In this document: one piece after another, positions 7,212 through 55,010 of the stretch | How positions within the stretch are numbered: the first letter of the stretch is position 1 | Layout of the letters: the number at the start of each line of letters is the position of its first letter | Assembly (NCBI GenBank): GCA_013334825.1 | Contig: JAAXWR010000001.1 | Span: 340,731-404,730 of the forward strand | DNA: 64,000 bases | Source of the DNA: Candidatus Yonathbacteria bacterium | GTDB taxonomy: Bacteria > Patescibacteriota > Minisyncoccia > Phycocordibacterales > JACNGX01 | Direction: 5' to 3' | Notes under the pieces: model-generated | Told to the model about the DNA's origin: nothing | Seen by the model: only the letters and a program-made list of their open reading frames with translations | Databases searched by the model: none | Made by a program: the position numbers and the translations under genes

Positions 7212-7463
7212 ATGCTGAAAAAACTTTTTCATTTGGTTCTCATTCTCGTTGCCCTGTGTGCAGGGCTTTACGGGATTGCTTTTTTCCTCCTCCCCTTTTT
7301 GGGGCAACCGGGGGGAATGATTGAAATCGGGGTATTTAACCCCGACGGCACCATTGACCTCACTCCTCAGGGATACTGGGGTCTGGGAAAGACCCTCGGT
7401 ATCCTCCTTGGGGGATATGTGGGGTTCAGATATTTTCTCAGGGAGGTAGCCACTTCTCTTTGA
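7212..7463 (+). CDS. Small membrane protein
   Basis: MLKKLFHLVLILVALCAGLYGIAFFLL..., hydrophobic. The ORF-track start at 7164 would overlap the promoter, so the start at 7212 is preferred. Confidence 0.45.
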   Translation: MLKKLFHLVLILVALCAGLYGIAFFLLPFLGQPGGMIEIGVFNPDGTIDLTPQGYWGLGKTLGILLGGYVGFRYFLREVATSL

Positions 7464-7496
7464 AATGTATCGGAGATGTTAGGAGATTGTGAAAAG

Positions 7497-7524
7497 GCGG
7501 GACGCAAGTCCCGCCTTCTTTTTA
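7497..7524 (+). terminator. Rho-independent terminator
   Basis: ggcgggac-gcaa-gtcccgcc followed by ttcttttt. Confidence 0.8.
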
Positions 7525-7563
7525 TAATGAGAAAAATATTATACCCTATTCTTTTAAGGAGAA

Positions 7564-7680
7564 GGCCTTTGACCTCCGCATTGTCCCGATGAATTGTGGT
7601 GGACCCTACCGGATTTGAATCCCGAGCTTCGTGGAAGCCCGAGGACAGGCCTTTGACCTCCGCATTGTCCCGATGAATTG
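7564..7680 (-). repeat. Tandem duplicated 3'-half fragments of tRNA-Ala(TGC)
   Basis: Reading the minus strand after the tRNA CCA end: CAATTCATCGGGAC + AATGCGGAGGTCA + a 34-nt insert + TTCAAATCCGGTAGGGTCCACCA. Then CAATTCATCGGGAC+AATGCGGAGGTCAAAGGCC occurs again. This is a direct read of the sequence. Confidence 0.85.
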
Positions 7681-7756
7681 TGGTGGACCCTACCGGATTT
7701 GAACCGGTGACCTCCGCATTGCAAATGCGGCGCTCTACCAACTAAGCTAAGGGCCC
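7681..7756 (-). tRNA. tRNA-Ala(TGC)
   Basis: GGGCCCTTAGCTTAGTTGGTAGAGCGCCGCATTTGCAATGCGGAGGTCACCGGTTCAAATCCGGTAGGGTCCACCA. G3:U70 pair, anticodon loop TTTGCAA, CCA encoded. Confidence 0.95.
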
Positions 7757-8026
7757 ACCACAATTCACCGAGGATTCTCGATTTCTTTTTGCTAAATACT
7801 CCTCAATCTTACTTCTACTCTTCCAAGATTTCAAGAGGCGCTCTTTTTTTATCGCCTCAGATCTCGTAGGTGATATTTCGTATGTTTCCAATATCCAGGG
7901 TTTGTATGCTTTGGTCGATGTTACCAAACCATCATTGTGTCGTTTCAATCGAATATCCATATTGAGACAACTTCCGATATAGTATCTATTATTTTTTAAC
8001 GAACGAAGAATGTATGTATAATACAT
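7742..8026 (-). CDS. GIY-YIG nuclease family protein (YhbQ/UPF0213-like)
   Basis: MYYTYILRSLKNNRYYIGSCLNMDIRLKRHN...KPWILETYE...EAIKKERLLKSW matches the YxYxL...YIG...R..H...E GIY-YIG pattern. The last about 5 codons overlap the 5' end of tRNA-Ala on the same strand. The ORF-track start at 8047 is a TTG extension. Confidence 0.75.
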   Translation of the reverse strand: MYYTYILRSLKNNRYYIGSCLNMDIRLKRHNDGLVTSTKAYKPWILETYEISPTRSEAIKKERLLKSWKSRSKIEEYLAKRNRESSVNCGGPLA

Positions 8027-8044
8027 AGCAAAAAGAAATCGGAA

Positions 8045-8110
8045 CAAATGCGGCGCTCTTTGCCTTGCCGAAGCTTAAGCGAAGGCAGGTACCAACTAAG
8101 CTAAGGACCC
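8045..8110 (-). pseudogene. Degenerate 5' fragment of a tRNA-Ala gene with a 31-nt hairpin insertion
   Basis: GGGTCCTTAGCTTAGTTGGTA-[CCTGCCTTCGCTTAAGCTTCGGCAAGGCAAA]-GAGCGCCGCATTTG matches tRNA-Ala positions 1-35 except for the insertion. It breaks in the anticodon loop. Confidence 0.7.
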
Positions 8111-26666: not shown

Positions 26667-26742
26667 GGGCGGCTAGCTCAGATGGTTAGAGCGCACGCTT
26701 CACACGCGTGAGGTCACAGGTTCGATTCCTGTGCCGCCCACC
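26667..26742 (+). tRNA. tRNA-Val(CAC)
   Basis: GGGCGGCTAGCTCAGATGGTTAGAGCGCACGCTTCACACGCGTGAGGTCACAGGTTCGATTCCTGTGCCGCCCACC. Anticodon loop TTCACAC. Confidence 0.93.
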
Positions 26743-26975
26743 TGCCTTCGCTAGAGTCTCAATATTGCATGACAAAAATATTTAGAAGCTTCGGCAAGGT
26801 AAGACAGGCGGCAAGCAAAGCAACTGCTTGCTTTGCGACAGGAATCGAACCGAGCACCACTTTTGATATTGCAAAAGTGGTGCTCGACATCCAGCGATAC
26901 TTATAAAAATGCGAGTGCTCGGAGTATTTTTGTTAGTAATCGCGGGACGATTCCTGTGCCGCCCACCTGCCTTCG
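26743..26975 (+). mobile_element. Mini-element at the tRNA-Val 3' end, bounded by a 27-bp direct repeat of the tRNA 3' end
   Basis: DR gattcctgtgccgcccacctgccttcg occurs at 26724-26750 and 26949-26975. The interior holds an 11-bp-stem hairpin (gcaagcaaagc/gcttgctttgc), an inverted tRNA T-arm fragment (ggaatcgaacc), a 14-bp inverted repeat cgagcaccactttt/aaaagtggtgctcg, and CGGGAC immediately before DR2. Confidence 0.6.
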
Positions 26976-27106
26976 GTTCGCTGAAGCGAACCTACGGCGT
27001 GGCAAGCCCGCTTTTGTTTGTACATACAATTGCGAGTATAATGAAAATAATTATTGTACGCGAAAGCGACCTTCGGTTCGCTGAAGCGAACCTACAGTGT
27101 GACAAA

Positions 27107-32046: not shown

Positions 32047-32120
32047 CGGGCTATCGTACAGTGGTAGTATGCATCCATGGGGTGGATGTGGCAGCGGTTC
32101 GATTCCGCTTAGCCCGACCA
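32047..32120 (+). tRNA. tRNA-Pro(GGG)
   Basis: CGGGCTATCGTACAGTGGTAGTATGCATCCATGGGGTGGATGTGGCAGCGGTTCGATTCCGCTTAGCCCGACCA. Anticodon loop ATGGGGT with G37. Confidence 0.85.
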
Positions 32121-32187
32121 TTCGACTTCGTTCGGCTTCAAGAAATGAAGCCTCACTCCGCTCATGGTCTTCGACCTTTTTTACCAG

Positions 32188-32502
32188 ATGAATAGGGTTT
32201 CTCTTGAAAAGCCGAATGGAGTCGAATGCCCTGAGCCTGTCGAAGGGCTTTACTATGTTTACTTACTTCTTTGCTGTGACGAAAGCTTATACTGTGGGTC
32301 AACAAAAAATCTCAAGAACCGCACAAAAGAACATAATTCTGGCGAAGGAGCGGCGTGGACTAAAAGACGCCGCCCGGTAAAATTAATATATTACGAAACG
32401 TATGATTCACTTATTTCAGCTCGTCGTCGTGAAAGACAAATAAAAGGATGGACAATTCAAAAAAAATTTAATCTAATAAACGGTATTTGGCAGAAATTAT
32501 AA
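32188..32502 (+). CDS. GIY-YIG nuclease family protein (YhbQ/UPF0213-like), second copy
   Basis: GLYYVYLLLCCDESLYCGSTKNLKNRTKEHNSGEGAAWTKRRRPVKLIYYETYDSLISARRRERQIKGW. The start may be 32164 or 32188. It lies 45-70 nt downstream of tRNA-Pro(GGG). Confidence 0.75.
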   Translation: MNRVSLEKPNGVECPEPVEGLYYVYLLLCCDESLYCGSTKNLKNRTKEHNSGEGAAWTKRRRPVKLIYYETYDSLISARRRERQIKGWTIQKKFNLINGIWQKL

Positions 32503-54651: not shown

Positions 54652-54722
54652 TGCCAGATCGTCTAATGGTAGGACAGCGGGTTTTGGTCCCGTCAATCTA
54701 GGTTCGAGTCCTAGTCTGGCAA
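54652..54722 (+). tRNA. tRNA-Gln(TTG)
   Basis: TGCCAGATCGTCTAATGGTAGGACAGCGGGTTTTGGTCCCGTCAATCTAGGTTCGAGTCCTAGTCTGGCAA. U1:A72, anticodon loop TTTTGGT, CCA not encoded. Confidence 0.88.
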
Positions 54723-55010
54723 CAAATGTAAAACGGCCTTATGGGCCGTTTTACATTTGTTGCCAGAAGCAGGGCGACTGCTCGCCCTGCGACTAGGACT
54801 CGAACGGCTCGGCGATGTCGGACCGAGCACCACTTACAAAAAATTCCTAAAAAGTGTTAGAGATATTTTCCAAATAATAAAGCCTCTCTATGATGTTATC
54901 TGAAAGTGGTGCTCGAGACGACCGCGAGCCGCGTCCAGGAGTACTTTGCGTATTGCGAATACTTGGAGCAATACGCTTAGTAACTCCGGGACGAGTCCTA
55001 GTCTGGCAAC
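54723..55010 (+). mobile_element. Mini-element at the tRNA-Gln 3' end bounded by an 18-bp direct repeat of the tRNA 3' end. It is homologous to the tRNA-Val element.
   Basis: DR gagtcctagtctggcaac occurs at 54705-54722 and 54993-55010. The interior holds a perfect 16-bp-stem hairpin (caaatgtaaaacggcc/ggccgttttacatttg), the hairpin cagggcgactgctcgccctg, an inverted tRNA-Gln T-arm fragment (gactaggactcgaac), an inverted repeat ggaccgagcaccactt...aagtggtgctcgag, and CGGGAC immediately before DR2. Confidence 0.6.

Follow-up and report, generated by a model that had tools for sequence, protein, structure and literature searches.

Stand-alone GIY-YIG nuclease genes at tRNA genes of a Candidatus Yonathbacteria bacterium lie in a hairpin-repeat trailer and in a split tRNA gene

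Results

Two small GIY-YIG genes adjoin tRNA genes

We analyzed a stretch of 64,000 nucleotides (nt) from the genome of a Candidatus Yonathbacteria bacterium (GenBank assembly GCA_013334825.1, contig JAAXWR010000001.1, positions 340,731 to 404,730 of the forward strand), hereafter called the window, which contains two small genes that encode stand-alone GIY-YIG proteins. One gene lies behind tRNA-Pro(GGG), and the other lies at tRNA-Ala(TGC) (Table 1). ARAGORN identified seven tRNA genes in the window, and Rfam agreed on tRNA-Pro(GGG) and tRNA-Ala(TGC). Using Pfam, we matched both the Pro-linked open reading frame (ORF; 32164/32188-32502, plus strand; E 4.6e-17) and the Ala-linked ORF (7742-8026/8047, minus strand; E 5.4e-15) to PF01541, with scores of 62.5 and 55.9 bits, respectively, against a curated cut-off of 22.6. 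A phmmer search of all six-frame ORFs identified no GIY-YIG gene in the 64 kb beyond these two, and their protein products share only 33% identity.

The initial annotation of this DNA had placed a YhbQ-type GIY-YIG gene directly downstream of tRNA-Pro(GGG) and had described both small genes as lying 0-70 nt from a tRNA gene on the same strand. Based on the ARAGORN, Rfam, and Pfam results, the placement is correct: the tRNA-Pro gene and the ATG at 32188 are separated by 67 nt on the same strand, and the Ala-linked ORF and the 5' end of tRNA-Ala have 15 nt in common, again on the same strand. The Pro-linked gene has an alternative in-frame ATG at 32164, and the next gene begins 12 nt past its stop codon. 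With two 300-nt genes placed at random among seven tRNAs, such proximity is expected with a probability of ~0.009 per gene and ~9e-5 jointly.

Both window proteins are bare GIY-YIG domains, with PF01541 alone detected. Across 26 sequences, Y33, Y43, and G45 are invariant, and R53, H57, and E78 are ≥90% conserved; these positions fit a putatively active GIY-YIG site. When compared with the PDB, the 104-amino-acid (aa) protein was most similar to the UPF0213 structures 1ywl (E 6.8e-11) and 1zg2 (E 1.3e-10), in agreement with the YhbQ/UPF0213 type assigned initially, and it matched SLX1 6seh weakly (E 0.002). Its match to TIGR01453 (E 0.0016) is far below the cut-off, and the protein is not a member of that family. 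Bacterial proteins of the 1ywl/1zg2 type have been placed in the Slx1 family as a minimal form of the fold (Dunin-Horkawicz et al. 2006, PMC1564403). Eukaryotic Slx1 is a structure-specific nuclease (cited in PMC1564403), and prokaryotic Slx1-like proteins are described as mostly vertically inherited, and a fusion to a TrmH-like tRNA methyltransferase is noted (PMC1564403).

Table 1. Features of the Pro and Ala loci in the window
Feature	Position	Strand	Evidence
tRNA-Pro(GGG), CCA encoded at 32118-32120	32047..32120	+	ARAGORN; Rfam tRNA 56.4 bits
Palindromic trailer starting at tRNA CCA: CCA-TTCGAC..GCTCATGG-hairpin..GTCGAA-TG-CCCTGAGC..GTCGAAGGGC	32118..32248	+	DNA profile, fold
P1 5' arm (TTCGACTTCGTTCGGCTT), complementary to 32209-32226	32121..32138	+	Helix kept in 57 elements
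Invariant GCTCATGG and small hairpin GGTC-TTC-GACC	32160..32176	+	Unique window match
GIY-YIG gene, stand-alone, Slx1/UPF0213 (YhbQ) type, 104 aa, intact	32188..32502	+	PF01541
P1 3' arm (AAGCCGAATGGAGTCGAA)	32209..32226	+	Complementary to P1 5' arm
D hairpin GCCCT-GAGCCTGTCGA-AGGGC, translated as ..CPEPVEG..	32228..32248	+	Unique pattern match in window
5' half of outer, disrupted tRNA-Ala (positions 1-35), 30-nt palindromic insert at 8060-8089	8045..8110	-	Sequence; layout of L205, L206, L211
Cassette left end TTCCGAT, inverted repeat with ATCGGGA at 7667-7673	8038..8044	-	Sequence, relatives
Second GIY-YIG gene, 94 aa, alternative TTG start at 8047, stop codon within inner tRNA-Ala	7742..8026	-	PF01541
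Complete inner tRNA-Ala(TGC), within cassette	7681..7756	-	ARAGORN, Rfam
Cassette right end ATCGGGA	7667..7673	-	Sequence, relatives
3' half of outer tRNA-Ala (AATGCGGAGGTCA..TTCAAATCCGGTAGGGTCCACCA), insert in T arm	7597..7666	-	Sequence, relatives
Further partial repeat past outer 3' half	7564-7596	-	Sequence

A structured trailer starts at the CCA end of tRNA-Pro

From the CCA of tRNA-Pro(GGG), a palindromic element that we call the trailer extends into the Pro-linked gene; it is roughly 100 nt long in general and ~130 nt long in the window. After the CCA, the modules are TTCGAC with the 5' arm of a helix (P1), an optional hairpin, an invariant (C)GCTCATGG leading into a small hairpin, a linker, the 3' arm of P1 ending in GTCGAA, a TG, and the D hairpin, YCCTGAGC-(insert)-GTCGAAGGR. 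This order is common to tRNA-linked loci, with a few short or divergent exceptions. We built a DNA profile from 26 trailers (25 from metagenome contigs plus GTDB locus L007), leaving out the window and its closest loci; the profile produced a single, full-length match in the window, at 32118-32248 (E 1.8e-8).

The helices of the trailer are conserved as structures. P1 is kept as a helix of 6-23 bp, with differing sequences, in 57 distinct elements, and the stem of the small hairpin varies between loci yet stays complementary as judged by eye (GGTG/CACC, GGC/GCC, AGTG/CACT). In 26 aligned compact elements, the three helices are 94.7% paired vs 85.9% in shuffles, a level that 0 of 500 shuffles reached; nine pairs changed on both sides, and slid partner columns give 30-52% pairing. 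The closing pair of the D hairpin also covaries, with CG 121, UA 38, GC 35, UG 23, and CA 6 among 232 distinct hairpins. The fold of the trailer has a z-score of -4.95 on the plus strand and -3.24 on the minus strand. From Patescibacteria to Acidobacteriota, the single-stranded motifs, which are 8-16 nt long, do not vary. Rfam identified tRNA alone at the gathering threshold in the window and 16 loci, and nothing credible matched the trailer at E≤10; our first impressions of hammerhead-, hepatitis delta virus (HDV)-like, and kink-turn-like cores were dropped.

In the clade of the window, the ORF starts in the P1 loop and is translated through the P1 3' arm and the D hairpin, which accounts for a strongly conserved N-terminal EVECPEPVEG; in other clades, the start codon follows the hairpin. 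The half of the trailer nearer the tRNA (CCA-TTCGAC..GCTCA-TGG) repeats the D hairpin in inverted, slightly altered form; the trailer is thus a doublet, and its first CC(A) falls on the end of the tRNA. In two public gene calls, P0001 (L201 10001-10393) and P0030, the nuclease ORF is extended upstream through the trailer into the tRNA 3' end, giving N-termini such as ..GSIPAASTIRLAP; these fused N-termini are an annotation artefact that reveals the upstream tRNA.

Nuclease genes are enriched and trailers common behind tRNA and tmRNA genes

The initial annotation had proposed a recurring tRNA-GIY-YIG association, and we surveyed the distances in relatives. Using a protein pattern, we scanned one genome per GTDB species and analyzed the best 80 of 263 loci, which are mostly from Patescibacteria and some of which are mutually related. 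A tRNA or transfer-messenger RNA (tmRNA) gene ended ≤400 nt upstream of the nuclease core on the same strand in 30 of the 80 loci and on the opposite strand in two. Given a background rate of 0.011 per 400 nt per strand, taken from far flanks, ~0.8 same-strand upstream neighbors were expected (P~5e-39). Downstream, tRNAs occurred within 400 nt on the same strand at nine loci and on the opposite strand at none. The association is strongest among the closest relatives (roughly ≥47% identity), and the partners are Pro (three anticodons), Ile, Ser, Lys, Val, Ala, Gln, Gly, Arg, Phe, and tmRNA. For the Ala-linked type, all 7 of 7 protein clusters adjoin a tRNA. The closest homologs of the window genes come from Patescibacteria.

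Nearest-neighbor nucleases share their tRNA type in 36 of 56 cases vs 6.6 expected. Switches of tRNA type between related nucleases also occur (Lys/Val at 73% identity and Ile/Pro at 63-69%). As a negative control, we examined 38 distant GIY-YIG relatives on viral contigs; none had a tRNA within 700 nt, and none had the repeat motif. Because these viral relatives lack tRNA neighbors, the association belongs to particular cellular lineages and not to the protein family or the method. The trailer pattern was not found in viral contigs either; with the GIY-YIG relatives there being distant and not near tRNAs, a phage origin of the Pro locus was rejected.

We then scanned metagenomes by motif alone (TCGAATGYCCTGAGC..TCGAAGG) and identified at least 120 trailer loci; the counts that follow are among the matches listed. 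The CCA directly precedes TTCGAC in 104 of the 120 loci. At the 94 loci with full flanks, the trailer lies behind a tRNA or tmRNA 3' end in 62 cases and is followed by a GIY-YIG gene in 38; 28 loci have both neighbors and 22 have neither, and in several of the loci scored as tRNA-less, a tRNA or tmRNA 3' end not called by ARAGORN is nevertheless recognizable. The trailer follows at least 23 tRNA types as well as tmRNA. Many hosts are GC-rich, including one member of the Vicinamibacterales (Acidobacteriota) with the order tRNA-Val, element, thrS. The association noted initially stands at both window loci, with a refinement for the Pro locus: the nuclease is tied to the repeat and the repeat is tied to tRNA ends, so the link to the tRNA is indirect.

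Trailers also occur with no nuclease gene. A gene-less trailer lies between tRNA-Val and thrS at L084 (Vicinamibacterales), L082, and L106 and between tRNA-Thr and tuf at L098; in GC-rich bacteria, the gene-less trailer may sit in the leader of an essential translation gene. On the 860-kb contig of L146, at ~7400-7700 in motif orientation, two consecutive tRNAs each carry their own trailer copy and no nuclease gene is present.

Relatives that lack a tRNA neighbor are associated with the same repeat. In 18 tRNA-less relatives, a D hairpin (CCTGAGC..GTCGAAGG) occurs 10-60 nt before the start codon and an inverted copy occurs 1-30 nt after the stop codon; 11 more have the upstream hairpin alone, and six have the downstream hairpin alone (background, 0.0026 per 85 nt). 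These bracketing hairpins are often arranged in doublets or in arrays of alternating inverted copies, and doublets also occur elsewhere with no gene. Stray copies number ~15 in ~500 kb of the relatives' flanks. At the Pro locus of the window, the repeat doublet is upstream only, and no inverted repeat was found 3' of the gene. Four loci from Clostridia and Alistipes (L062, L069, L075, and L080) have no CCTGAGC..GTCGAAGG hairpin upstream of their GIY-YIG genes and show repeated GTCATTCTGAGCG..CGAAGAATC / GCTCAGAATGACA motifs of similar design within ~200 nt upstream; other phyla may have their own cognate repeats by GIY-YIG genes.

The Pro-linked gene is absent, decayed, or duplicated in some relatives

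Using tblastn, we found none of the window's flanking proteins in L001-L200; syntenic relatives were reached via the SdpI neighbor. The Yonathbacteria locus L212 is syntenic (GH130, GH130, then SdpI, patatin, Ddl, UvrC), and its neighboring protein is 78% identical. This locus has tRNA-Pro(GGG) and ~2.5 tandem copies of the 5' trailer modules, right after which SdpI starts; it has no D hairpin and no nuclease gene. At L201-L204, which are ~92% identical to the window and syntenic with it, the gene is kept but its C-terminus is truncated by a 1-nt deletion. At L214, a 10-nt deletion puts the start codon out of frame, and a 3' frameshift like that of L201-L204 is present as well. The GIY-YIG gene of L066 has an in-frame stop. 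Two contigs of one metagenome-assembled genome (MAG), L029 and L038, end in gene copies that are 93-97% identical. The Pro-linked gene is dispensable, is decaying, and is present in multiple copies in one genome.

A cassette with a complete tRNA splits the outer tRNA-Ala gene

The initial annotation had noted a rearranged Ala locus, and the rearrangement is one of nesting: the nuclease gene and a complete tRNA-Ala lie within a split outer tRNA-Ala. On the minus strand, the order is the 5' half of tRNA-Ala, TTCCGAT, the nuclease ORF, the whole tRNA-Ala(TGC), ATCGGGA-C, the 3' half, and a partial repeat. We read this locus as a cassette, bounded by 7-nt inverted repeats, that entered between anticodon positions 35 and 36 and supplies a substitute tRNA. 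A group I intron was rejected for this locus, as Rfam gave no intron match and only ~30 non-coding nt are present besides the ORF and the inner tRNA.

The layout of half tRNA, GIY-YIG gene, whole tRNA, and half tRNA recurs at L205, L206, and L211. The relatives with this layout include two Moranbacteria genomes, whose proteins are 68% identical, and a tRNA-Ala(CGC) locus (L211), and the protein genes around the locus are not the same in the window as in L205/L206. At L211, the two outer halves can pair with one another, G3:U70 being among the pairs, and their sequence is not that of the inner tRNA. When the outer halves of L205 and of L211 were joined, ARAGORN called each as tRNA-Ala. The sequences that flank the inner tRNA pair with covariation, and TCCCGAT..ATCGGGA ends or solo hairpins also occur at L205-L211 and L254-L259. 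A protein from a Candidatus Yonathbacteria MAG, P0042, is 100% identical to the second GIY-YIG protein of the window.

Further clusters of this gene type lie by tRNA-Glu, tRNA-Asn, and tRNA-Pro (three clusters) and by tRNA-Met (one), all on the same strand. These clusters carry duplicated tRNA fragments and also tRNA-like pseudogenes in which the anticodon arm is replaced by a solo TCCCGA..TCGGGA hairpin. At L208 (2500-3400), a tandem duplication comprises a truncated GIY-YIG copy, a tRNA-like hybrid, and then a full copy downstream of tRNA-Met; its sister contigs L207, L209, and L210 have a single GIY-YIG copy.

Other small elements occur at tRNA 3' ends

Two further tRNA genes of the window are followed by units of another kind. 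After tRNA-Val(CAC), a unit of ~225 nt (26724-26975, plus strand) is bounded by direct repeats of 27 nt that comprise the tRNA 3' end with its flank (GATTCCTGTGCCGCCCACCTGCCTTCG at 26724-26750 and 26949-26975). In the insert, the T arm of this tRNA recurs in inverted form (GACAGGAATCGAAC), along with a long hairpin, GAGCACCACTT..AAGTGGTGCTC, and the conserved TCCAGCGATACTT..TAGTAATCGCGGGAC. After tRNA-Gln(TTG), a like unit of ~287 nt (54706-55010, plus strand) has direct repeats GAGTCCTAGTCTGGCAAC at 54706-54723 and 54993-55010, an inverted T-arm copy (GACTAGGACTCGAAC), GAGCACCACTT hairpin arms, and GCGTCCAGGAGTACTT..TAGTAACTCCGGGAC. The two units look like a second family of small elements targeting tRNA 3' ends. 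A ~150-nt member of this family lies between the tRNA-Pro(GGG) body and a duplicated 3' fragment plus CCA at L201 (9864-10041), L212 (4653-4826), and L214 (2279-2453). It is absent at 32120 in the window, a clean presence/absence polymorphism between genomes that are ~92% identical. The same arrangement of tRNA body, ~150-nt element, and duplicated 3' fragment also occurs at L005, L189, and L199.

In the 5' tRNA-Ala fragment, the D loop is broken at 8060-8089 (minus strand) by a small palindrome, (CC)TGCCTTCGCT..AAGCTTCGGCAAGG, of which a longer version occurs directly after tRNA-Val at 26743-26797 (plus strand). Another short repeat, CCTTCGGTTCGCTGAAGCGAACCTAC, is distinct from this palindrome and is present at 26970-26995 and 27070-27095.

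Discussion

The initial annotation had suggested that these nucleases are tRNA-gene-associated selfish or mobile genes and not ordinary housekeeping UPF0213 proteins. The absence of the gene at a syntenic site, its decay, the near-identical copies, and the bracketing repeats and split tRNAs support that suggestion, and we think it probable, though well short of certain, that both are selfish, dispensable genes of the Slx1/UPF0213 type that are associated with hairpin repeats; their mobility and its mechanism are inferred. The Pro locus can be read as a three-part composite of tRNA-Pro(GGG), a ~130-nt trailer beginning at the tRNA's own CCA, and a minimal nuclease gene that starts inside the trailer and reads through its last hairpin. 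The CCTGAGC..GTCGAAGG repeats would dock preferentially on tRNA and tmRNA 3' ends, and the nuclease would live within that repeat family. Transcription is probably by read-through from the tRNA promoter, given the constant shared orientation, the 67-nt spacer, and the lack of a convincing promoter or terminator; in a promoter scan, matches were no more frequent than in shuffled sequence and thus speak neither for nor against a promoter.

Persistence and spread would most likely proceed by nuclease-initiated recombination or gene conversion at hairpin or cruciform DNA, much as in homing or in REP/RAYT systems but with a structure-specific GIY-YIG enzyme. Each nuclease subfamily would recognize its own hairpin or inverted repeat as a DNA structure, and break-induced recombination would aid its retention or spread; such recognition would account for the location of the nuclease genes in hairpin repeats and in tRNA genes, which abound in inverted repeats. 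The second gene would be a sister case, with TCCCGAT..ATCGGGA as its cognate repeat and a cassette that replaces the tRNA-Ala it destroys.

Several observations weigh against this interpretation. No movement of these genes was observed. A ~100-aa protein with no DNA-binding domain is unlike the characterized homing endonucleases, and the single repeat copy in the 64-kb window does not resemble a high-copy REP-like family. Synteny is kept at 75-87% nucleotide identity within three sets of relatives (L004/L006/L012, L040/L057, and L034/L054), which points to slow turnover or to partial domestication of the gene; in three genomes, the GIY-YIG stop codon overlaps the start of the next gene, an arrangement typical of an established operon. 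The trailer and gene of the window and L201 share 96-97% identity vs 89-94% for flanking genes, with five synonymous and six non-synonymous changes, which speaks against high mobility. The shared tRNA type of neighboring nucleases fits vertical co-inheritance as well as target specificity. Lastly, P1 shows no excess of G-U over A-C (22 vs 21), but the D hairpin has an excess of U-G over C-A (23 vs 6), such that the structure may act as DNA or as RNA.

This last point bears on a different explanation, in which the trailer is a functional RNA, such as a tRNA 3'-processing signal, an element that self-cleaves at the CCA, or a translational leader, with the nuclease a passenger on the tRNA transcript and the repeats kept by selection at the RNA level. 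The sharp 5' boundary, always at the CCA, the single-stranded motifs that are invariant from Patescibacteria to Acidobacteriota alongside covarying helices, the better fold of the plus strand, the U-G excess at the D closing pair, and the start codon in the P1 loop are all in its favor. However, 32 of the 94 listed elements with full flanks have no tRNA call or T-loop upstream, and although several of these look like missed ends, the remainder are at apparently ordinary intergenic sites. The hairpin also occurs in both orientations around tRNA-less GIY-YIG genes and in tandem arrays, the 5' trailer modules of L212 are repeated in tandem as a DNA repeat would be, P1 has no G-U excess, and no known ribozyme or RNA family matched even at E≤10. 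On balance, we consider selection on an RNA an unlikely explanation of the repeats.

It is more doubtful still that the nuclease is a housekeeping Slx1/UPF0213 enzyme of tRNA or RNA metabolism, or of tRNA-gene repair, that is co-transcribed with the tRNA for co-regulation. Such a role is consistent with the same-strand orientation, the intact catalytic motif and conserved sequence, the synteny kept in some lineages, and the mostly vertical inheritance and TrmH-like fusion of prokaryotic Slx1-like proteins (PMC1564403). It does not sit well with the absence of the gene at the orthologous site of a congeneric genome, with the existence of pseudogenes, or with several near-identical copies in one genome; moreover, about half of the relatives have no tRNA nearby, viral relatives never do, and the partner varies among >14 tRNA types and tmRNA. 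Coincidence in a small, gene-dense, tRNA-rich genome, which the initial annotation had allowed for, is suggested by there being two cases in one window, observed post hoc; given the joint probability for the window and the replication of the pattern in 80 + 120 + 15 independent loci with a shared junction sequence, its probability is close to nil.

Building on the interpretation of selfish, repeat-associated genes, a broader one is that the loci represent a new class of bacterial mobile elements, each with a ~100-aa Slx1-type nuclease and its own cognate repeat, aimed at structured-RNA genes. Under this tentative proposal, to which we give rather less than even credence, a CCA-docking type would occur across phyla, with gene-less derivatives resembling miniature inverted-repeat transposable elements (MITEs), and an anticodon-loop type would carry a replacement tRNA. 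The host could then not lose the cassette without losing the tRNA, which would amount to an addiction strategy. The trailer, being conserved, could be a new processing RNA as well.

Comparison with known systems

The prokaryotic Slx1/UPF0213 proteins (YhbQ, EF2693, BH0048) have the same domain and ~100-aa size as the window proteins, with no auxiliary domain. Whereas that family is mostly vertically inherited (PMC1564403), window-type genes are patchy, decaying, and multi-copy and lie in hairpin repeats or split tRNAs. Homing endonuclease genes share with the window-type gene its presence and absence at an orthologous site (empty at L212; decayed at L214, L201, and L066). The Seg genes of phage T4 are free-standing GIY-YIG genes that are presumed to spread by double-strand breaks and gene conversion. 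The likeness to the T4 Seg family lies in a free-standing GIY-YIG gene beside tRNA genes; SegB, for example, sits in a tRNA gene cluster (context in PMC13096335). However, Seg proteins and I-TevI are >200 aa long with a separate DNA-binding domain, whereas the window proteins are ~100 aa and consist of the catalytic domain only; unlike the T4 genes, window-type genes are cellular, have cognate inverted hairpins, and fall outside TIGR01453.

REP and REPIN sequences are short hairpin repeats associated with RAYTs, which are HUH/Y1 transposases. The 18 tRNA-less relatives, each a single nuclease gene bracketed by inverted short hairpins, and the gene-less doublets resemble the REP/RAYT system, in possible working as well; the differences are a GIY-YIG nuclease instead of an HUH/Y1 (IS200/IS605-type) enzyme, one repeat copy in 64 kb, and docking at CCA or tRNA ends, which has no REP counterpart. 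The insertion of the Ala cassette between positions 35 and 36, with ends that pair, is reminiscent of group I introns with homing genes in tRNA anticodon loops; however, the cassette has no ribozyme core and holds a complete second tRNA, which a self-splicing intron would not need.

The nearest published observation that we found concerns rRNA genes of the Candidate Phyla Radiation (CPR), which carry insertions encoding GIY-YIG proteins, mostly at the tops or bases of stem-loops (PMC11270868). Those insertions are not group I or group II introns, and tRNA is not mentioned in that report (PMC11270868). The two systems share a bacterial group, a nuclease superfamily, and structured-RNA genes as hosts; they differ in that window-type hosts are tRNA and tmRNA genes and in the CCA-docking trailer and the cassette with a spare tRNA. 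In the literature searched, whose coverage was incomplete so that a prior description is possible, we found no description of the tRNA/tmRNA association, the trailer, or the spare-tRNA cassette.

These comparisons matter for how such genes are annotated. Split genes escape the callers of tRNA genes, and in gene calls such as P0001 the end of a tRNA is joined to the nuclease ORF. To our knowledge, the UPF0213/YhbQ proteins rank with the most common small bacterial nucleases that lack an explanation; if some of their clades are hairpin-associated selfish genes, a concrete idea of function would be the cleavage of specific hairpin or cruciform DNA. The trailer, which ranges from Patescibacteria to Acidobacteriota behind >20 kinds of tRNA and tmRNA and is not in Rfam, would be either a new CCA-targeting mobile repeat or a new tRNA-linked RNA element. 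Where tRNAs are single-copy, a selfish nuclease gene that sits with a spare tRNA within a tRNA gene would have a new way of being hard to lose.

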